Part shown: piece by piece, positions 34,513 through 43,538 of the stretch | How positions within the stretch are numbered: position 1 is the first letter of the stretch | How the letters are laid out: every line of letters starts with the position of its first letter | IMG/VR virus record: IMGVR_UViG_646311924_000020 | Reading direction: 5' to 3' (one strand) | DNA length: 43,730 nt | DNA from: a virus | Lineage: Duplodnaviria > Heunggongvirae > Uroviricota > Caudoviricetes | Notes under the pieces: model-generated | The model's database searches: none | The model's input: the letters and a program-made list of their open reading frames with translations, nothing else | What the model was told of the DNA's origin: nothing | Program-made: the position numbers and the translations under genes

Positions 34513-35401
34513 CGTGTTCACCCTCACGAACTTTCAGGTAGGTATTATCGTTAAGCAGGAAATCAAATCCCTTTTTGTGCCAGATAGTTCCGCGTTGATG
34601 GTTTGGACGCTCTTCGAACATCCATCGGCAATTTTCGCCTACGTAGCTCAAATAATTTCTCCAGTCCTGCATCGTGAACCCATGCCCGTCAAGCTGGCGT
34701 GTTATCACTCCGGCTTTGCGCCAGAACGTTCGGATCTGGTTTTTACGCTTGTCATTCAGTGCGCGGATTCTTGGCGCTTCAGGAAGGATTTCGTGGTAAG
34801 CATCGACAACATCCTGACAGCTGACGGAAGGTTTTTTCTTGTCAGACTTTTTGTCTGCTGTGGCACTCTCTAATACGTCAGTATTAGAGATAATATTATT
34901 ATATTCTTTATCTGTGGTAATTTGCTGGTAATCTGCTGGTACAGTATTGCTTGCATGCATTGGTATTGCTGGCTTTGAGGTGGTAATTTGCTGGTAATCT
35001 GCTGGTACAAAATTTGACTGATAATCGTCATATTTCTCTACCGAGAAAACTGAGGATTTACCGTGTGAAACCCAGTCAATCATGCCGAGTTTTTTGAACT
35101 TTCTAAGCAGGTACTGAACGCGATCTGGTTTGAGTCCTGTTTCAAACGCCAGAGAGTTTCTACCGCCAAGTAGCTTCCCTCTGCCTACCAGAATTTCTCC
35201 TGCGTCAGTCATTACATACTCAGGCGTATGCTTTGCTTTGAGGATTAAGTGAACCCACAGATGCGCTGCTTCTGCGTCCTTGTAAAACGGCACATCCATA
35301 ATTTTACGGTGCAGCAAGGCATACCCCTTACCGCTGCTTTGATGCGGTTGTTGTAGCCTTCTGGCCTCTCTGGCTTCGGCTAGATTAGATATGTTACTCA
35401 T
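34502..35401 (-). CDS. replication initiation protein (O-like, origin-binding)
   Basis: 299 aa directly upstream of and overlapping the helicase gene; contains an internal DNA iteron array and AT-rich block, as lambda O contains its own ori. Confidence 0.65.
34865..35010. repeat. candidate replication origin: iterons plus AT-rich block inside the O-like gene
   Basis: Two identical 29 bp direct repeats TGGTAATTTGCTGGTAATCTGCTGGTACA (34915-34943 and 34981-35009), each made of CTGCTGGTA-type sub-repeats, with a degenerate copy between, adjacent to AT-rich 34871-34910. Confidence 0.6.
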
Positions 35402-35954: not shown

Positions 35955-36000
35955 TCGCTTTTCAGCGACGTAGGACGAATGTCCGTTGTTACAAAGAGCG
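35955..36000 (-). promoter_or_regulatory. candidate nutR (boxA plus boxB)
   Basis: Minus strand just after cro: CGCUCUUUGUAACAACG (boxA-like), a small hairpin GGAC-AUUC-GUCC, then UCGC-UGAAAA-GCGA (GAAAA loop as in lambda boxB). Nearly the same arrangement recurs upstream of N. Confidence 0.5.
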
Positions 36001-36010
36001 GATCCGCTTA

Positions 36011-36226
36011 TTAAGCGGCTTTGTGTTCCGGCGGGAACACGTCATCAAGACTGACTTTTGCGCCTAACTTGTTTAGGCACGCAACAAGAGCACGGCATGT
36101 TTTAAGGTCTGGGAAGCGACGACCAGATTCCCAATGTCCGATAGCTCCCTGTGTGCATCCAACTGCCTTAGCAAGTGTTGTTTGAGAGATATTCAGTGAC
36201 TCTCGATATTTTCGTAGGTTGCTCAT
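36011..36226 (-). CDS. cro: Cro-like repressor (HTH_XRE)
   Basis: 71 aa from ATG 36226 (MSNLRKYRESLNISQTTLAKAVGCTQGAIGHWESGRR...), GGAGGG RBS, divergent from cI. Confidence 0.8.
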   Translation of the reverse strand: MSNLRKYRESLNISQTTLAKAVGCTQGAIGHWESGRRFPDLKTCRALVACLNKLGAKVSLDDVFPPEHKAA

Positions 36227-36252
36227 ATGCCCTCCATAGTAACCATAACGCA

Positions 36253-36281
36253 ATAATACGATATGTACTTTTAGAATGCAA
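36253..36281 (-). promoter_or_regulatory. candidate pR promoter (-35 TTGCAT, 17 bp spacer, -10 TATTAT)
   Basis: On minus strand upstream of cro; spacer and -10 overlap the 15-mer AGTACATATCGTATT, an operator-like motif also present at pL. Confidence 0.45.
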
Positions 36282-36343
36282 ACAAAAAATACATCTTGTG
36301 CATGGATGATTTTAGTACAGAGCGTAATAATAAGGGTATGAAA

Positions 36344-36997
36344 ATGAAATGGTATGAACTGGCTAGATCCAGAATGAAAGAGCTCGGCATAACTCAAGAG
36401 AAGTTAGCCGAAGAGCTTGGTATGACGCAGGGTGGAATTGGTCACTGGTTGCGCGGATCTCGTCATCCATCTCTTGACGAGATTGGTGTGGTGTTTAAAT
36501 ACCTTGGTATTGATAACGTCTCATTCAACCACGACGGTACATTTTCACCTGTTGGCGAATACTCATCTGCCCCCGTTAAAAAACAATATGAGTACCCTGT
36601 TTTTTCTCATGTTCAGGCCGGTATGTTCTCGCCTGAGCTTAGAACCTTTACCAAAGGTGATGCGGAGAGATGGGTCAGCACAACCAAAAAAGCCAGTGAT
36701 TGTGCGTTTTGGCTTGAAGTTGAAGGTAATTCCATGACCGCGCCAACAGGATCCAAGCCAAGCTTTCCTGACGGGATGTTAATTCTCGTTGACCCTGAGC
36801 AGGCTGTTGAGCCAGGTGATTTCTGCATAGCCAGACTTGGTGGTGACGAGTTTACCTTCAAGAAACTGATCAGGGATAGCGGTCAGGTGTTCCTACAACC
36901 ACTAAACCCGCAATATCCAATGATTCCATGCAATGATAGCTGTTCCGTAGTAGGGAAAGTTATCGCCAGCCAGTGGCCTGAAGAGACATTTAGTTAA
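36344..36997 (+). CDS. cI: CI-type prophage repressor (N-terminal HTH, C-terminal S24 LexA-like domain)
   Basis: HTH segment ([23 protein letters not shown]) and S24 motifs (GNSMTAP...FKKL); start chosen at ATG 36344 (7 nt after AAGGG); ORF-track start 36296 is a TTG. Confidence 0.85.
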
Positions 36998-37029
36998 CAG
37001 CCTCACCACTCTAAAACACACAACAATAA

Positions 37030-37057
37030 CCCGACCTTAGCGTCGGGTTTTCTTTTT
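37030..37057 (+). terminator. intrinsic terminator after cI
   Basis: Hairpin CCCGAC-CTTAGC-GTCGGG followed by TTTTCTTTTT, 33 nt after the cI stop. Confidence 0.6.
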
Positions 37058-37123
37058 CCAAAATATAAACCCATTAAATACAAAGCGTTATAAAAAACTA
37101 AACCATATTTAGAACATTTTGTA

Positions 37124-37152
37124 TTGACTCAGTAAAGTACACATCGTACTAT
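37124..37152 (+). promoter_or_regulatory. candidate pL promoter (-35 TTGACT, 17 bp spacer, -10 TACTAT) with overlapping operator-like 15-mer
   Basis: Spacer and -10 contain AGTACACATCGTACT (37136-37150), an inverted-repeat-containing 15-mer near-identical to the one at pR. Confidence 0.5.
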
Positions 37153-37198
37153 TTAGCTATCAGCAGGAAGCTGGAAGCCAAACGGAACAGACTGGCAG

Positions 37199-37244
37199 GC
37201 TCTTTAAACAACGTCGAACACTCGACTACGTGGCTGAAAAGCCA
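37199..37244 (+). promoter_or_regulatory. candidate nutL (boxA plus boxB)
   Basis: GCTCTTTAAACAACG (boxA-like), small hairpin GTCGA-ACAC-TCGAC, then TGGC-TGAAAA-GCCA (GAAAA loop); located between pL and N. Confidence 0.5.
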
Positions 37245-37342
37245 GATCACCCAACCACATAAGCTGTGGGATGCAATGCCGAAGCAACCGTCTCAGGAGG
37301 GGCTTCGAGATTGCATCGCCAAAGTTTATTCGGGAGGAATCT

Positions 37343-37615
37343 ATGTCCAGAAAAACAGAATTTAAAGGAACCGCAGCTTCTCGCCGTAGAGCTCGTCGTG
37401 CAAATCTGCAAAGTCAGGAGGCGATCAGCTCCGACAAGCTACACAGGCCAACCCCTTCACGAGTGGTCTTGCAATGCAAGCGCAAACCAGCAATGAGAGC
37501 AGAAGTGATAACTCTGACAACGTTGACCAGAAAATATGAAGGTTCAACTTGTCTTCCGAACGTAGCCATTTACGCGGCAGGCTACCGGAAATCAAAACAA
37601 CTGACGGCGAGATGA
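37343..37615 (+). CDS. N: N-type antitermination protein (arginine-rich motif)
   Basis: 90 aa from ATG 37343 (GGGAGG RBS): MSRKTEFKGTAASRRRARRANLQSQEA...; first gene after pL and the nut-like site. Confidence 0.7.
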   Translation: MSRKTEFKGTAASRRRARRANLQSQEAISSDKLHRPTPSRVVLQCKRKPAMRAEVITLTTLTRKYEGSTCLPNVAIYAAGYRKSKQLTAR

Positions 37616-37743
37616 CTTGTGTTGGTCGCCAGAAAATGAAATTAGGCAGCAAACCACTTATTTGAGGTGAGATATGGAAGAAGAATTTGAAGAGTTCGAA
37701 GAGCATCCGCAGGATGTGATGGAACAATACCAGGACTATCCGT

Positions 37744-37944
37744 ATGACTACGACTACTGATAAAAATCAATGGTGTGGACAATTCAAGCGATGCAATGGA
37801 TGCAAGCTGCAATCGGAATGCATGGTTAAGCCTGAAGAAATGTTTCCTGTAATGGAAGATGGGAAATATGTCGATAAATGGGCAATACGAACGACGGCAA
37901 TGATTGCCAGAGAACTTGGTAAACTGAACAACAAGGCTGCCTGA
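37744..37944 (+). CDS. ral: Ral (restriction alleviation protein)
   Basis: 66 aa MTTTTDKNQWCGQFKRCNGCKLQSECMVKPEEMFPVMEDGKYVDKWAIRTTAMIARELGKLNNKAA, matches recalled lambda Ral. Confidence 0.85.
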   Translation: MTTTTDKNQWCGQFKRCNGCKLQSECMVKPEEMFPVMEDGKYVDKWAIRTTAMIARELGKLNNKAA

Positions 37945-37962
37945 TGGCGGCCTTTATTTTTG
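37935..37962 (+). terminator. intrinsic terminator overlapping 3' end of ral
   Basis: Hairpin GGCTGCC-TGAT-GGCGGCC (one G-U pair) followed by TTTATTTTTGG. Confidence 0.5.
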
Positions 37963-38009
37963 GCATAAACAACAGAATAAACACAGCACTGAATTATTTG
38001 AGGTGAGAT

Positions 38010-38480
38010 ATGACAAAATCATGGAGCGTACCTTTTCCTGAATCAGAAACTGAACATGATGGAATGCCTGTTTTCTGGAGATTCCAAGCGACAGTTGAAG
38101 AAGATGGAATCAAAATATTCGCACTTCAATATATAGCTTTTCATCAGACAGATCATTATGCATGGTTGGTTCCTGCGCATTGGATTGTTAATTTTAAACC
38201 AGCACCAAATCAGTGGTTACAGGAATGGAAACAAAGGAGAAATAGATATGCAATTAAGAAAGTAGCAAAAAATGCCGAAAGATCTTTTGCATTCCCGACG
38301 AAGAAACTTGCCATTGAAAGTTTATTGCGCCGGAAGAAGTACCATTTAATGAGAATCAAACAAGATTTGGCTGTTGTATCAACTCTTGTTGATGGGATGA
38401 AGAATATTGATACATCAATACCAGATATTGAATATAACTTTGGACACAACCAAGAAACAGAAAATTGGGTGTTTTATTAG
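38010..38480 (+). CDS. hypothetical protein (156 aa), accessory gene between ral and cIII
   Basis: AT-rich ORF with strong RBS GAGGTGAGATATG, no predicted membrane segment; no family recognised. Position corresponds to P22 gene 17 / lambda sieB locus. Confidence 0.55.
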   Translation: MTKSWSVPFPESETEHDGMPVFWRFQATVEEDGIKIFALQYIAFHQTDHYAWLVPAHWIVNFKPAPNQWLQEWKQRRNRYAIKKVAKNAERSFAFPTKKLAIESLLRRKKYHLMRIKQDLAVVSTLVDGMKNIDTSIPDIEYNFGHNQETENWVFY

Positions 38481-38584
38481 TACGAATAAGCACTGTGTAT
38501 TCATTCCAACGAGTGAATACACGGAGCAATGTCGCTCGTAACTAAACAGGAGCCGACTTGTTCTGATTATTGGAAATCTTCTTT

Positions 38585-38610
38585 GCCCTCCAGTGTGAGG
38601 GCCTTTTTAT
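38585..38610 (+). terminator. intrinsic terminator after the 156 aa gene
   Basis: Hairpin GCCCTC-CAGTGT-GAGGGC followed by CTTTTTAT. Confidence 0.65.
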
Positions 38611-38674
38611 ATGCATACCAATAACGCTTCACTCGAGGCGTTTTCGTTATGCAATCAAACAGAAGGAGCATCCT

Positions 38675-38845
38675 ATGCAACAGTTCGCTATTGCAGGGGC
38701 GGCATCGGTTCGCCCTTTCAACCCGATTTTATCGGTACAGCATTCACGAAAAAATATTTTAACCGGAGCAGACTTTAAACAACCAAGAATGAAAAGCTTG
38801 CTCGAAAAGCTTTGGGATATTTTGAAACAACAAGGCCGCCCATGA
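38675..38845 (+). CDS. cIII: CIII-like protein (FtsH inhibitor)
   Basis: 56 aa from ATG 38675 (AAGGAG RBS): MQQFAIAGAASVRPFNPILSVQHSRKNILTGADFKQPRMKSLLEKLWDILKQQGRP; N-terminal MQ-AIAG and central amphipathic LLEKLWDIL resemble lambda CIII. Confidence 0.7.
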   Translation: MQQFAIAGAASVRPFNPILSVQHSRKNILTGADFKQPRMKSLLEKLWDILKQQGRP

Positions 38846-39012
38846 GTTTTACAGATAACTGGTCAGACGAAGAATTCATTCGTCAGATGAAAGAATTAAT
38901 CGGTAACGAAGGAGATATTCATGTCACTTGCAACCACCGTGAAGGAGAGCAAGTTACAGAGACGCATGTACACGCAGCAGGCGTTAATGTATCGCCAGAA
39001 GGGAGATCGTGA
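38842..39012 (+). CDS. hypothetical protein (56 aa), kil position
   Basis: ATG overlaps the cIII stop (ATGA); small acidic protein; function by position only. Confidence 0.4.
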   Translation: MSFTDNWSDEEFIRQMKELIGNEGDIHVTCNHREGEQVTETHVHAAGVNVSPEGRS

Positions 39013-39101
39013 AGGTGTTCGCGTATTTTTAAATGCGGCAAAGACTGAAGTATTAAATCAGCGTTATTTCCTTGGGCCATGTCCATTCTGAGAACAATCA
39101 T

Positions 39102-39707
39102 ATGAGCAAAGAATTTTACGCAAGACTGGCAGCTATTCAGGAAAATCTGAACGCGCCCAAGAATCAGTACAACTCATTCGGTAAATATAAATACAGAAGC
39201 TGCGAAGACATTCTTGAAGGCGTTAAGCCGTTACTGAATGGTCTGTTTTTATCAATCAGCGATGAAGTTGTGTTGATTGGTAATCGGTATTACGTGAAAG
39301 CCACGGCAACTATTACCGATGGCGAAAACAGTCATACGGCAACCGCTCTTGCACGAGAGGAAGAAAGCAAGAAAGGAATGGATTCTGCACAAGTTACGGG
39401 AGCTACAAGCTCTTATGCACGCAAGTATTGCCTCAATGGTTTGTTCGGCATTGATGATGCGAAAGATGCAGATACAGACGAGCATAAACATCAGCAGAAC
39501 GCAGCAGCAAAGCAATCAAAACCATCACCTACACCTGAACAGGTTCTAAAAGCATTCACTGACGCAGCATTGCAGAAAAACACCGTAGAAGAGCTTAAAC
39601 AGGCGTTCGCCAAAGCGTGGAAGATGCTCGAAGGCACACCGGAGCAGCACAAAGCGCAGGACGTTTACAACATCAGACGAGACGAATTAGAAGGAGCGGC
39701 TGCTTAA
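39102..39707 (+). CDS. erf: Erf (essential recombination function, single-strand annealing protein)
   Basis: From ATG 39102: MSKEFYARLAAIQENLNAPKNQYNSFGKYKYRSCEDILEGVKPLLNGLFLSISDEVVLIGNRYYVKATATITDGENSH..., matches recalled P22 Erf. Confidence 0.95.
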   Translation: MSKEFYARLAAIQENLNAPKNQYNSFGKYKYRSCEDILEGVKPLLNGLFLSISDEVVLIGNRYYVKATATITDGENSHTATALAREEESKKGMDSAQVTGATSSYARKYCLNGLFGIDDAKDADTDEHKHQQNAAAKQSKPSPTPEQVLKAFTDAALQKNTVEELKQAFAKAWKMLEGTPEQHKAQDVYNIRRDELEGAAA

Positions 39708-40090
39708 TGGCACATTCGATTACTGTAAGACTAAACAAGCCCGCAAGAGAGTTTCAGGCCGGGGAAAATATCGGATTCAACATCCGTGCTGGCGTTCAGT
39801 ATTACGATCGCCAGACAAAAAAGAAAGAATGGACAAACTACAACGCCGTTGTATTTGCCAAGCCGGGAGCGCAAGCGGATTACTACCGTAGTGTTCTTGT
39901 TGAAGGTGGCATTGTAGAAATTACCGGAGAAAACATCAGGGTTGATGTTTATCAGGGGCAAAATGGTCAATCAATCACTCTTGAATTACTGAATGCAAAG
40001 ATTGGATTTGCAGCTTCAGGAAATGGCCCGCAGCAGCAAAGTAGTAACCAGCAGAACACCCCTGTATACGACGATTCCATCCCATTCTGA
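39707..40090 (+). CDS. hypothetical protein (127 aa), immediately downstream of erf
   Basis: ATG overlaps erf stop (TAATG); MAHSITVRLNKPAREFQAGENIGFNIRAGVQYYDRQTKKKEWTNYNAVVFAKPG...; function unknown. Confidence 0.55.
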   Translation: MAHSITVRLNKPAREFQAGENIGFNIRAGVQYYDRQTKKKEWTNYNAVVFAKPGAQADYYRSVLVEGGIVEITGENIRVDVYQGQNGQSITLELLNAKIGFAASGNGPQQQSSNQQNTPVYDDSIPF

Positions 40091-40113
40091 TTTAGAAAAA
40101 TAAGGATTTAATT

Positions 40114-40407
40114 ATGCCAGCGCCTCTGTATGGTGCGGATGACCCGCGCCGCTGTTCCGGCAATTCCGTATCGGAGGTGCTGGATAAATTCAGGAAAAAT
40201 TACGACCGGATAATGTCGCTACCGCAGGAAACAAAAGAGGAAAAGGAATTTCGCCACTGCGTATGGCTTGCAGAGAAAGAAGAACGCGAGCGAATTTACC
40301 AGACATCAATCCGACCATTCCGCAAAGCCACATATACCCACTTCCCTGAAATTGACCCGCGCCTGCGTAATTACCGCTCACGCTATGGCGCTATCAGTAA
40401 TAACTGA
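40114..40407 (+). CDS. possible Abc2-like anti-RecBCD protein (97 aa)
   Basis: Size and position (second gene after erf) fit P22 abc2; I cannot verify sequence identity from memory. Confidence 0.4.
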
Positions 40408-40417
40408 GGAATTTACC

Positions 40418-40585
40418 ATGAGAGGACTTGCATACAATCCCAGCATTCTTCCGGCAGAAATGATTATTCGCCAGCGCGTAAAGCCAATGCCATCGAGAGA
40501 GGAATTACTTAAGAGAAATTCTTTTCCGTCAGTAAATCAAAACAAATATCTGAATGCGATGTTGCGTAAAGGAGGCAAGCAGTGA
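40418..40585 (+). CDS. hypothetical protein (55 aa)
   Basis: ATG 40418 after GAGGA; operon-strand small ORF. Confidence 0.35.
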
Positions 40586-40881
40586 GTGTATGTCTTATTG
40601 ATAAACGTCGACGTGGGCAACAAATACCATCTGTTGAAATGCCGAATCACACATGGTTTTGCGTACTTGATATCGATGGTATGGATACGTTGGTTGACAC
40701 TCGTCATTACTGCGATACCGCAACAGCTACTCCGGCGAAAGCAAAGAAAATTGCTGCTCTGATAGAAAACTGGACTCCACCTGATGGTTGGTGCAATGGG
40801 AATGATCGAGATTGGCATGAAAAAATGAAGGGCTATATCTGCGATTTCTTACGTAAATGCAACGGATTCAGGGTGATGTGA
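40582..40881 (+). CDS. hypothetical protein (99 aa)
   Basis: GTG start overlapping previous stop; Cys/Trp-containing small protein. Confidence 0.45.
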
Positions 40882-40882
40882 C

Positions 40883-41437
40883 ATGAACAAGATTGACTAT
40901 CAGGCACTGCGTGCCAAGGCAGAAAAAGCAACGTGTGGTGAGTGGTCGCTCGAATATGGAGAGGAGAGATTTGATGCTGGTGATGCGCTAATTCATCGTG
41001 AAGTTGTTGGATATCTTCCCATTTGCAGAATTGAAGGAGCGCATCCTGAAAGCGGTTTCGATGAAGATTTCCAGATGGAACAGCAGGCCAATGCTGAATT
41101 TATTGCTGCCTTTAATCCAAAGGTTGCTTTGGCACTGCTGGATGAACGGGAAAGAAACCAGCAATACATCAAACGCCGCGACCAGGAGAACGAGGATATT
41201 GCGCTAACGGTAGGGAAGCTGCGCGTTGAGCTTGAAGCAGAAAAACAGCGGGCAAAAGTTCTATTTATGGAAAATGCTCGGCTTAAGTCAGGCATAGCCG
41301 GTCTGATACACCTCGGTATTCGATATGCAGATGTTGAGGTCATGAAAATTGCTGGAGATGCCCAGCTTTCTACCCCATGCACTGACAGCATCATAAACAG
41401 CATTGCAACAGGCATTCGCATCAAAGGAGGTGAGTAA
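40883..41437 (+). CDS. hypothetical coiled-coil protein, possibly Ead/Ea22-like
   Basis: 184 aa with central coiled-coil (RRDQENEDIALTVGKLRVELEAEKQRAKVLFMENARLK); resembles Ead/Ea22-like prophage proteins by memory only. Confidence 0.45.
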   Translation: MNKIDYQALRAKAEKATCGEWSLEYGEERFDAGDALIHREVVGYLPICRIEGAHPESGFDEDFQMEQQANAEFIAAFNPKVALALLDERERNQQYIKRRDQENEDIALTVGKLRVELEAEKQRAKVLFMENARLKSGIAGLIHLGIRYADVEVMKIAGDAQLSTPCTDSIINSIATGIRIKGGE

Positions 41438-41613
41438 TGCGTGTGGCATGTATCGGCTTGTTACCGTACCCGACTCGTTTTTGGGCTTCTGCGCTAATTG
41501 CAAAGCCGCATGTCCTGATGGCTGACAACATCATCCCGGCACCAAAGCGCCGCCATACCGGTATTGCATCGGCACGACGAGCAGCAAAGAAACGCAGGAG
41601 AGCAAAACGATGA
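41437..41613 (+). CDS. hypothetical protein (58 aa, basic C-terminus)
   Basis: Translationally coupled small ORF (TAATG start, ATGA stop overlap). Confidence 0.3.
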   Translation: MRVACIGLLPYPTRFWASALIAKPHVLMADNIIPAPKRRHTGIASARRAAKKRRRAKR

Positions 41614-41798
41614 AAAACCGTAAAGCAAAGATTCTGTTAGTTCGTAGAAACGCTCCTGGCGTCTGGCAGTGGGTGAGACTCAGCAACCGACGGGTGGGGT
41701 TAATGAAACATTACGGGATGATGGATTGTGGTTTTTGCAAAAAGCCCAGCGCGGCGCAAAACCGCTGGAAAAACCACTTGCGTACTAAAGGAGAGTGA
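41610..41798 (+). CDS. hypothetical protein (62 aa)
   Basis: Start overlaps previous stop; basic, Cys-containing. Confidence 0.3.
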   Translation: MKNRKAKILLVRRNAPGVWQWVRLSNRRVGLMKHYGMMDCGFCKKPSAAQNRWKNHLRTKGE

Positions 41799-41799
41799 T

Positions 41800-42009
41800 A
41801 TGGCTATTGCCGCAAGTTACACCATGCATCTCTATTGTGACTGCCGCCAGTGTACGGAAGGTGTATATCCAGTGCCAGACTTCGGAGAGTATATCGGCAC
41901 GTCATGGGCTGGTTGTGCAAAAGAGGCGCGTAAGGATGGCTGGCGAATAAGCAAAGACAAAACACGTGCTTTTGCGCCTGGGCATAAAGTTTTGAGGATT
42001 AACAAATGA
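41800..42009 (+). CDS. hypothetical Cys-rich protein (69 aa)
   Basis: ATG 41800 after AAGGAGAG; MAIAASYTMHLYCDCRQCTEGVYPVPDFGEYIG... Confidence 0.35.
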   Translation: MAIAASYTMHLYCDCRQCTEGVYPVPDFGEYIGTSWAGCAKEARKDGWRISKDKTRAFAPGHKVLRINK

Positions 42010-42809
42010 CCACTATTACCAGAGAACAAGCTCTGAAAATTATTGAGGCAGCCGATGAGGTTATTAGTGCGCTTGCCGGAACTAACGAGGATGTTCACCC
42101 TGGTAGCGATAACATGCTACGCCTGTGGGATGACCTGAATGACCGTTACGCGCCGCCGGAAGTTGTGCGTGAGCTGGCACGGATTGCGCTGGCATCGTTG
42201 GAAGCAAAACCAATAGGTGCATTCCACATTGCAGAACAGCAAGTTGACGGCACAAGTGACTACCTCAAGGATGGAGAATGGCCTATTGATAATGGGACAA
42301 TTGAAGTATACGCCGCCCCTCCAGTGCCAGTAGTACCTGAAGAAAAACCAATGCCTAACCCTCTTAGCATGTACGCGGTCGATGCTGTTGCCGCTATTGC
42401 AGAGGTGAGAGGCTGGAACGCCTGCCGCGCCGCCATGCTTCATGGTGCCGAACCTGTAAGCCAAACTTACAAGTCACAACACACGCAGTTTGAACAAGTT
42501 GCTGACCTCTACGAAATGCAATTTGATGACGGTCGCACTTGTGCCTTTCACACTGATGCGCAAAAGGCTGCGCAATGGCTTCAGGCATGCGACGGAAACA
42601 GGGTTCAGGAATACGTGAAGCTGGAGCGATTGCGTAATGCGCTATCGGGCAACTCTCCGGTAACTCCGGATGGTTGGGTTATGGTGCCGAAGGAACCAAC
42701 TCAGGCCATGATTAAAGCGTGGCTATCAGAGATTGCTAACTTTCGCGGTCATGCTGCTGGTTACAGGGCTGCTCTTGAGGCAGCACCACAGGAGGTTAAC
42801 CGTGGCTAA
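42006..42809 (+). CDS. hypothetical protein (267 aa)
   Basis: Longest ORF of the early accessory region; no family recognised. Confidence 0.55.
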   Translation: MTTITREQALKIIEAADEVISALAGTNEDVHPGSDNMLRLWDDLNDRYAPPEVVRELARIALASLEAKPIGAFHIAEQQVDGTSDYLKDGEWPIDNGTIEVYAAPPVPVVPEEKPMPNPLSMYAVDAVAAIAEVRGWNACRAAMLHGAEPVSQTYKSQHTQFEQVADLYEMQFDDGRTCAFHTDAQKAAQWLQACDGNRVQEYVKLERLRNALSGNSPVTPDGWVMVPKEPTQAMIKAWLSEIANFRGHAAGYRAALEAAPQEVNRG

Positions 42810-43086
42810 CCTGCAACTTGCCGTCAAAGGTGAATACTTCGATGCCATGATTCGCGGAGAGAAAACAGAAGAGTATCGCCTGTGTAATGACTACTGGAAT
42901 AAGCGAATTATGTTCCGGGAGTATGACCGCCTGATTATCACAAAGGGATATCCGAAGCGCGACGACTCCAGCCGCAGAATAGACGTCCCGTATGACGGAT
43001 ATGAAATCAAGACAATCACACATCCCCACTTCGGCGATAAACCGGTAAAGGTGTTCGCGATAAATGTGAATATCGGCAATGAATAA
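42802..43086 (+). CDS. ASCH-domain-like protein (94 aa)
   Basis: GTG 42802 after GGAGG; VANLQLAVKGEYFDAMIRGEKTEEYRL... resembles ASCH/PUA-like small proteins (from memory). Confidence 0.45.
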   Translation: MANLQLAVKGEYFDAMIRGEKTEEYRLCNDYWNKRIMFREYDRLIITKGYPKRDDSSRRIDVPYDGYEIKTITHPHFGDKPVKVFAINVNIGNE

Positions 43087-43145
43087 CAACCCTCGCATTT
43101 GCGGGGATTTCTTTTATCTGAACTCGCTACGGCGAGTTTTGTTTT

Positions 43146-43457
43146 ATGGAGATGATTATGGTCTGTTCAACATTCAACCATCTAACGTTACAGAAATACC
43201 AGCCAGACCCTGAAGATTTATGCTCACTGTGTGGCGGAAATCATGGTAAAGCCGCCATGATCGAATGTAATGACAAAATCCACATTTGCCTTAATTGCGT
43301 TGATGTCCTCGTTGATATCAAAAATGAGAGAGAAGATAAAAAGCGTAGCGAGGCTATTCGCGCCTTAGATTCATGGATGCGAGATGGGTATAGTGCTGCG
43401 CAAATTTATGACTTAGCAATATCAAAAGGCGAAATACCAGGAGTACGCATCGAATAA
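43146..43457 (+). CDS. hypothetical protein (103 aa), possible zinc-binding
   Basis: Contains CSLCGG...CNDKIHICLNC cysteine pattern. Confidence 0.5.
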   Translation: MEMIMVCSTFNHLTLQKYQPDPEDLCSLCGGNHGKAAMIECNDKIHICLNCVDVLVDIKNEREDKKRSEAIRALDSWMRDGYSAAQIYDLAISKGEIPGVRIE

Positions 43458-43497
43458 GACATAACCGATATTCGAATTGAAGAACTGAAAGAACACC

Positions 43498-43524
43498 AAG
43501 CCGCCTGATGGCGGTTTCTTTTTG
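43498..43524 (+). terminator. intrinsic terminator upstream of xis
   Basis: Hairpin (AAG)CCGCC-TGAT-GGCGG(TTT) followed by TTTCTTTTTG; shares the GCCTGATGGCGG core with the terminator at 37935-37962. Confidence 0.5.
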
Positions 43525-43538
43525 CCTGGAGAATTAAG

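Follow-up and report, generated by a model that had tools for sequence, protein, structure and literature searches.

We analysed a window of 43,730 nt, the full length of IMG/VR virus record IMGVR_UViG_646311924_000020 (Caudoviricetes), with respect to a short sequence that occurs twice downstream of the gene for antiterminator N. The region, read on the + strand, corresponds to the PL (early-left) operon in a lambdoid prophage. The sequence, TTATTTGAGGTGAGATATG, is present on this strand at 37658-37676 and at 37994-38012, both copies being exact by direct reading and by pattern search; the 3′-end of each copy is the ATG of an open reading frame (ORF), orf28 for copy 1 and an ORF of 156 aa for copy 2. 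The features of the locus are listed below (SD, Shine-Dalgarno sequence).

37343..37615, + strand: antiterminator N gene of the P22/H-19B type, ending ...YRKSKQLTAR* (Pfam N_peptide, 8e-32; ORF list)
37616..37665, + strand: non-coding relic of a 21/lambda-type N 3′-end, in the -1 frame relative to N, ...TCVGRQKMKLGSKPLI* (homology to the lambda N end; IMG/VR N ORFs)
37645..37676, + strand: conserved core of the left boundary, 32 nt, GGCAGCAAACCAC followed by the 19-mer (conservation across representatives)
37658..37676, + strand: copy 1 of the 19-mer, with the N stop relic at 37663-37665, the SD GAGGTGA at 37664-37670 and the orf28 ATG at 37674-37676 (predicted SD:anti-SD duplex, -11.5 kcal/mol)
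37674..37760, + strand: orf28, acidic peptide of 28 aa, MEEEFEEFEEHPQDVMEQYQDYPYDYDY (same ORF as lambda orf28; PHROG 16060)
37744..37944, + strand: ral (restriction alleviation), with a weak SD of its own (Pfam Ral, 3e-47)
37933..37993, + strand: right boundary and inter-cassette spacer, hairpin AAGGCTGCC TGAT GGCGGCCTT, T-run, then GGCATAAACAACAGAATAAACACAGCACTGAA (terminator scan)
37992..38495, + strand: 504-bp segment without lambda counterpart, AA, the 19-mer, the 156-aa ORF and TACGAATAAGCACTG (lambda comparison)
37994..38012, + strand: copy 2 of the 19-mer, left end of the 156-aa cassette, with the SD at 38000-38006 and the ATG at 38010-38012
38010..38480, + strand: accessory ORF of 156 aa (PHROG 1636, unknown function, 1e-111)
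38496..38610, + strand: downstream flank common with lambda, hairpin GTGTATTCA..TGAATACAC, then terminator-like GCCCTCCAGTGTGAGGGC and a T-run (by-eye alignment; terminator scan)

No third copy of the 19-mer was seen in the window at up to three mismatches, and none of 100 dinucleotide-preserving shuffles contained two matches (mean, 0.03). The two copies are 336 bp apart. The repeat is exactly 19 nt long, the adjoining base being different at either end (upstream C/A, downstream G/A), and it is the sole exact direct repeat of at least 19 nt listed for the window (family D2). A preliminary description had reported an identical 19 bp giving the ribosome-binding site and ATG of a 28-codon acidic peptide (37674-37760) and of a 156-aa gene; this agrees with the sequence and with the ORF list. 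It had also described the repeat as bracketing ral: the bracketing is real, but the enclosed unit is orf28 together with ral, not ral by itself.

orf28 and ral

The product of ral matches the Ral family PF11058 with 158.5 bits (cutoff 25) over residues 1-66 of 66. The gene begins (ATG at 37744) within orf28, with an overlap of 17 nt that is kept in all 23 orf28 alleles compared (23/23), and the predicted SD:anti-SD duplex is much weaker for ral (-4.0 kcal/mol) than for orf28. The pair thus has the sequence features of a coupled pair, an overlapping start and a weak downstream SD; because of these two features, translation of ral is likely coupled to that of orf28.

The orf28 peptide appears to be under purifying selection, judging from the pattern of polymorphism in the 23 alleles: 16 of the 24 variable sites fall at codon position 3 (binomial P ∼9e-4), and many of the changes are synonymous. 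We therefore treat orf28 as probably a conserved peptide whose translation is predicted. In lambda, a knock-down of orf28 had no plaque phenotype (PMC10695390); elsewhere orf28-ral is mentioned just as a deletion in strain constructions (PMC2327257).

The left boundary and its occupants

The sequence around the 19-mer can be read as the end of one gene and the beginning of another. In phages with a lambda- or 21-type N, CTT ATT TGA represents the last two residues (Leu-Ile) and the stop of N; GAGGTGA overlaps this stop and forms a 7-nt SD, and 3 nt further on is the ATG of the first post-N gene. Lambda N ends ...TCSGRQKIKGKSIPLI (...KSIPLI), and full-length N ORFs of lambda, 21 and hybrid types (99-128 aa) at the IMG/VR loci end ...GRQKMKLGSKPLI* at the TGA inside the motif. 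The upstream half varies synonymously (AGC/AGT, AAA/AAG, CCA/CCG). The boundary, then, extends beyond the 19 nt of the preliminary description; the 3′ coding end of N makes up its upstream half.

In the window, positions 37620-37665 are the homologue of the lambda N end in another frame, with the TGA at 37663-37665 inside the first 19-mer. The window has an N gene of the P22/H-19B type, which terminates 58 nt before this point; therefore, copy 1 sits in the relic of a 21-type N 3′-end. An intact ORF of 38 codons (37549-37665; ...RGRLPEIKTTDGEMTCVGRQKMKLGSKPLI*) overlaps the 3′-end of the P22/H-19B-type N gene in the -1 frame. It is homologous to the true C-terminus of lambda/21-type N, and many phages that have an N of this type keep it open; probably, it was left behind by recombination. 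An N isoform made by a programmed -1 frameshift, which would fuse the P22-type N with the ...GRQKMKLGSKPLI relic frame, is less likely; by eye, no canonical slippery heptamer was seen.

In a metagenomic phage (L205, 2440-2510), an N stop is likewise situated within an SD, in an arrangement of another build. The N-like gene of this phage, apparently of the P22 type, ends ...ITAR* with the stop within the SD (AGG TGA), 2 nt before the ATG of a homologue 70% identical to the 156-aa protein.

The conserved core is short and its flanks are unrelated. Across 29 representatives, positions -29 to -17, which were not forced by the search pattern, are ∼70-99% conserved, versus ∼30-60% column identity further out, and the element spans the N stop, the SD and the next ATG, ending at this ATG or one codon beyond it. 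Phages mEpX1, CurroJimenez and SfI match just these ∼31 nt. A wider region of 57 nt is common to 260 phage records, many Stx phages (VT2-Sakai, P27), Sf101, mEp234 and the lambda imm21 hybrid among them; the hosts of lambdoid phages with the 32-nt boundary are E. coli, Shigella and Salmonella. For comparison with published boundaries it can be written ...CCACTTATTTGAGGTGA.ATATG.

One could ask if the 19 nt arose independently in each case, through selection for an optimal ribosome-binding site, since GAGGTGA placed 3 nt from the ATG (6 nt from the GAGG core) makes a near-ideal E. coli initiation region. Such convergence has next to no chance of being correct: it leaves unexplained the TTATTT, the TGA of N and a further 13 nt common to the first-slot copies, and an exact match of 19 nt is not expected by chance. 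A scan of 185,579 species genomes, which serves as a control of specificity and not as a distribution, gave just 23 matches to the 19-mer, near the ∼9 expected by chance and mostly in unrelated taxa; the matches in named Enterobacteriaceae were E. coli (2) and E. albertii only.

To see what follows the boundary, we scanned IMG/VR with the pattern TATTTRAGGTGANNTATG. This first sample was chosen by the motif itself; two further samples were drawn via the N 3′ coding sequence and via the 156-aa protein. Each scan gave at least 120 loci, and all counts are among the matches listed. On the IMG/VR contigs, the motif is located 3′ of the N gene or of N 3′-end remnants. It stands at the start of at least nine ORF families: orf28 and ORFs of 156, 83, 107, 62, 149, 118, 53 and 52 aa, all nine preceded by ...GCAGCAAACCAC. 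The seven families with a PHROG match fall into seven different PHROGs, and five of the nine begin with ATG GAA/GAG. In the sample drawn by the N 3′-end, ∼100 of 133 non-identical instances continue ...CCACTTATTTGAGGTGAKATATG. Three more ORF families use an SD of their own (207-aa Nmad5, 80-aa DUF7446 and a 62-aa ORF), and here the homology breaks after TTATTTGAG or earlier. Other occupants of the post-N slot (in L126, L210 and L022) include the 207-aa Nmad5 protein (nucleotide modification associated domain 5, 7e-70) as well as DUF7446 and DUF7167 proteins; the repertoire of the slot is almost entirely uncharacterised.

Upstream and downstream modules are reassorted across the element. We counted 14 upstream classes and 10 downstream ORF classes, the main N-end types being each joined to 3-7 different ORFs. 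Among 131 distinct first-slot instances, 440 pairs have upstream sequences at least 95% identical and unrelated downstream sequences, 1866 pairs show the reverse (same downstream, different upstream), and all four combinations of same and different occur. Such reassortment is, as far as comparison of sequences can tell, what recombination recurring at the junction or close to it leaves behind. The earlier suggestion of a module boundary used in cassette exchange, which came with the advice to look for the 19-mer at gene boundaries of related prophages, gains comparative support here: the 19-mer is present at the 5′ junctions of at least nine unrelated ORF families and the flanks are reassorted. 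The condition named for its refutation, a 19-mer confined to this locus and unrelated to module junctions in other phages, thus does not hold. Exchange itself we infer from this reassortment.

The 156-aa gene offers a view of the boundary from the side of a single occupant. Searches of Pfam, PADLOC, NCBIfam and PDB sequences gave no match for its product, and an AlphaFold2 model built on an alignment of 19 sequences was too poor to use (mean pLDDT 52, pTM 0.31). Of 31 homologues, some are named from Pectobacterium, Brenneria and Rosenbergiella. In the sample found by the protein, the exact 19-mer precedes the gene in 72 of 80 loci and a G14T variant in 6 of 80. N-3′-end sequence directly precedes the gene and its start region in 66 of the 80; in another 12 the gene occupies the second or third slot, behind the junction GCACTGAATTATTTGAGG, and the cassette upstream of it varies (orf28-ral or ORFs of 207, 62 or 149 aa). 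Homologues at 57-83% identity are located elsewhere (Pectobacterium, Brenneria, metagenomes) and have unrelated start regions, and at two genome loci of distant homologues the gene adjoins xis-int. The 19-mer, therefore, belongs to the slot and not to the gene.

These data bear on the idea of a shared translational control site, also raised in the preliminary description. What was borne out is a common strong ribosome-binding site; regulator binding or another 'control' function was not found. A dedicated site, a repressor operator or a small RNA target that co-regulates orf28-ral and the 156-aa gene, would account for a 19-mer common to genes of one operon and for conservation in excess of what an SD needs (TTATTT upstream, GATATG as spacer). 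We find it very unlikely, given that N coding (Leu-Ile-stop, with synonymous changes farther 5′) accounts for the conserved upstream part, that other cassettes of the slot as well as the distant 156-aa homologues use different start regions, and that the one common polymorphism (G/T at position 14) falls in the spacer. RNA folding around both copies gave nothing significant beyond the terminator hairpin (z = -1.9 and +0.7), and the idea of a structured regulatory element was dropped for this reason.

Another way to obtain two copies is local duplication, by slippage or gene conversion, of copy 1 into copy 2 in this prophage lineage, with no relation to cassette history. Identity of the window copies at a distance of 336 bp is what it would predict; however, in the 66 loci mentioned above the 156-aa gene bears its 19-mer as the only post-N cassette, without orf28. 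Besides, in other genomes with the orf28-ral-156aa order (phage phi367, L124 and L128) copy 1 reads TTATTTGAGGTGATGTATG, two mismatches away from copy 2; the copies are therefore not kept identical in relatives and there is no homogenisation. We consider local duplication highly improbable, and the exact identity of the two window copies partly incidental.

The right boundary and the stacked cassette

The right end of the orf28-ral cassette is the hairpin at 37933-37954, and the second 19-mer, which the preliminary description took as the right-hand bracket, is the left end of the next cassette. The hairpin scores as terminator-like, and its left arm encodes the K-A-A-stop of Ral. A hairpin of the form GGCYGC..GGCC followed by TTTATTTTTGGCATAAACAACAGA(ATAAACACNGCACTG) is found at the 3′-end of several cassettes: hairpin and spacer lie 3′ of ral, of four ORFs (83, 107, 62 and 149 aa; labels MEFHES, MEALVV, MERKFE and MEEQAN) and of one variant of the 156-aa ORF. 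In three cassettes the left arm encodes the last residues as K-A-A-stop. With ATG GAA/GAG at the starts and KAA-stop at the ends, the shared flanks thus reach 1-3 codons into the ORFs.

The 504-bp segment (37992-38495) ends ...GAATAAGCACTG and is flanked by direct GCACTG, at 37986-37991 and 38490-38495. In lambda, ral is followed directly by ...AACACTGCACTG joined to TGTATTCATTCC..., so that GCACTG and TGTATTC adjoin at precisely the point where the window has the 504 bp. Lambda, lacking the gene, also has the terminator-like hairpins that follow it in the window (38585-38602 and 38623-38642), so these are not specific to the insert. The junction of ral, the 19-mer and the 156-aa ORF is rare: of 5426 complete E. 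coli genomes, 17 have it at 80% query cover or more, most of these being O111, and either half of it alone is present in 1174 genomes.

Copy 2 holds 8 nt of the N 3′-end (TTATTTGA, Leu-Ile-stop) with no N gene upstream. Because it keeps TTATTTGA with no N gene in front, the second copy is best read as the fossil of a former post-N position. The stacked junction has the form GCACTGAA-19mer. A simple microhomology join does not account for it: a crossover in CACT predicts GCACTTATTTG, and the window has GCACTGAATTATTTG.

Stacks were seen in other phages too. In L149 (IMG/VR, ∼2200-3000) three post-N cassettes with ORFs of 62, 149 and 156 aa are stacked, parted twice by an identical spacer of ∼68 nt composed of hairpin, spacer and 19-mer. 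In L014, an independent fusion of hairpin to boundary (hairpin-TTTTTGGCA joined to GCAAGCCACTTATTTGAGG) has a GGCA microhomology and keeps 21 nt of the N 3′-end.

Array-like stacks parted by one repeated spacer, as in L149 and in the window, could suggest a site of site-specific recombination (like integron attC or phage att) used by a dedicated recombinase. Such a site is extremely unlikely here. The 19-mer has no dyad symmetry; homology can break after TTATTTGAG, at the ATG or after ATGGAA, and the junction types are not constant either (GCACTG-AA-TTATTT versus the GGCA microhomology). Variable break points and junctions fit homologous or illegitimate recombination better. There is no adjacent recombinase gene, the neighbours being N, ral, a cIII-like gene and erf, and none was identified in 36000-43538. 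The region around the locus includes:

36338-36997: cI-like repressor (Peptidase_S24 and helix-turn-helix)
39102-39707: Erf

Downstream (3′) of Erf, a cIII-like gene, a gene for single-stranded DNA-binding protein (SSB) and an excisionase-like gene were assigned by eye from translations.

Taking left boundary, right boundary and stacking together, we consider it likely that the 19-mer is the downstream half of a conserved post-N junction that hosts exchangeable cassettes, and that the window has two copies because two cassettes were stacked. An accessory gene in the first post-N slot would start at the ATG of the shared start region, unrelated small ORFs being plugged in there, and the conserved flanks on both sides would allow cassettes to be swapped by ordinary or relaxed homologous recombination between co-resident phages or prophages. 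In the window, orf28-ral would be the cassette of the first slot with the 156-aa gene behind it. An illegitimate join (GCACTG-AA-TTATTTGAGG) would have placed the latter, which normally lies directly after N, 3′ of the hairpin spacer of ral; having kept its own start region, including the 8 nt of the N 3′-end, the gene would have brought in the second 19-mer. Each copy would act as a strong ribosome-binding site on the N-antiterminated PL transcript, translation of orf28 would probably also bring ribosomes to the weakly initiating, overlapping ral, and the hairpin terminators would separate the cassettes. Read in this way, the repeat is an ordinary example of known phage mosaicism.

Several points weigh against the exchange of cassettes by recombination at the junction and against stacking as the direction of events. 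The reassortment could also stem from illegitimate joins filtered by selection for expression, and recombination at the junction is, in our data, a matter of comparison. Ungapped identities overcount 'different' pairs where indels exist; selection of the first IMG/VR sample by the motif is corrected for only in part by the N-end and protein samples. Events may also have run in the reverse direction, with deletion between the 19-mers regenerating the common N-19mer-156aa form, as opposed to stacking. Translation of orf28 and of the 156-aa ORF is a prediction.

One could speculate further that the post-N region is a two-sided 'expression socket' array, with N stop, SD and ATG on the left and on the right a hairpin encoding the last codons (KAA-stop). 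Both sides would be preferred substrates for Red-beta/Erf annealing, allowing integrase-free capture, stacking and swapping of early counter-defence genes; orf28 would be a functional acidic peptide, a Ral partner or DNA mimic, and not a mere leader ORF. We think this extension rather unlikely.

Repeats were seen elsewhere in the window. Two units of ∼1311 bp (15259-16569 and 18438-19748, 3179 bp apart; repeat families D7 and D8) are bounded by inverted ends of 25-26 nt, TTGAACCGCCCCGG..CCTGGAGA; presumably they are akin to insertion sequences of the IS3 family (IS629-like), which they resemble. At 34914-35014 there is a direct repeat of 35 nt (GTGGTAATTTGCTGGTAATCTGCTGGTAC...; family D3) with 94% identity and a distance of 66 nt; it has internal GCTGGTAAT sub-repeats and may be iteron- or operator-like.

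Comparison with known systems

Lambda offers the closest comparison. Its orf28-ral region (NC_001416, 34087-34357) has an identical orf28 peptide and a near-identical ral with the same 17-nt overlap; the hairpins 3′ of it are shared too, and its start region, CTATTTAAGGTGATATATG, is related. In contrast to the window, lambda has sieB inserted between N and the boundary, a single copy of the motif with three mismatches and no 156-aa gene; its next slot is taken by ea10 and is empty in the window. Where lambda (L001, 1037-1460) has ea10, in the window (38585-38650) the hairpin CCCTCCAGTGTGAGGGC runs nearly straight into ATACCAATAACGCTTCACTCGAGGCGTTTT; this points to a second cassette slot, bounded by two hairpins, that may be filled or empty.

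PMC3029335 traces the concept of short conserved boundary sequences at the mosaic junctions of lambdoid phages back to Susskind and Botstein (1978), with their modular theory, and to Clark et al. (2001; J Mol Biol 311:657). Like these boundary or linker sequences, the element described here is a short conserved stretch between unrelated early-region modules; such sequences were proposed to be places where homologous recombination concentrates and, possibly, where expression is controlled. It differs in being resolved into N codons with stop, SD, ATG and a right-hand hairpin, and in being duplicated within one genome by stacking. The HK620 study by Clark, Inwood, Cloutier and Dhillon of 2001 is said to have recognized seven such sequences in lambdoid early regions.

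The 156-aa cassette has some likeness to the morons of Hendrix and colleagues, autonomous additional genes of lambdoid phages that have a promoter and a terminator each. In both cases a small accessory gene, found in some phages and missing from others, lies between conserved neighbours with terminator-like hairpins 3′ of it. However, no promoter-like site precedes the ORF (a scan for consensus sigma-70 promoters found none between 37945 and 38010), the start region that it uses is the one shared in the operon, and its predicted expression is from the N-antiterminated PL transcript, not from the repressed prophage. The scan is a weak test, as it covers consensus promoters only; having no such promoter of its own, the cassette is probably not a moron. 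Neither is it an integron-type cassette, as there is no recombinase and no attC-like site; the hairpin at 37933-37954 with its T-run looks like an intrinsic terminator.

At the internal protein locus of T4 (Ip1-3), unrelated counter-defence genes in one hotspot share a short 5′ segment (PMC12373910). The slot of the window likewise holds a counter-defence gene, Ral being a known inhibitor of type I restriction-modification; here, though, only Ral has a known function. Moreover, the shared segment of T4 is a coding, capsid-targeting leader, whereas that of the window is mostly non-coding (SD and 0-1 codons).

For the study of prophages, the 32-nt core together with the hairpin spacer is usable as a search handle for accessory genes expressed early. 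Almost all genes that can be harvested in this way have no known function, the exceptions being Ral, a restriction inhibitor, and the Nmad5-domain protein. orf28, annotated as hypothetical in lambda, is flagged as a conserved, probably translated acidic peptide of 28 aa. Current understanding is not overturned; what is added is the make-up of the left boundary (N stop, SD and ATG), the presence of shared flanks at both ends of the cassettes and the fossil of stacking. The locus provides a base-resolved example of lambdoid mosaicism at one hotspot: at least nine unrelated genes begin at a common start region, to which a partner boundary on the right-hand side corresponds.

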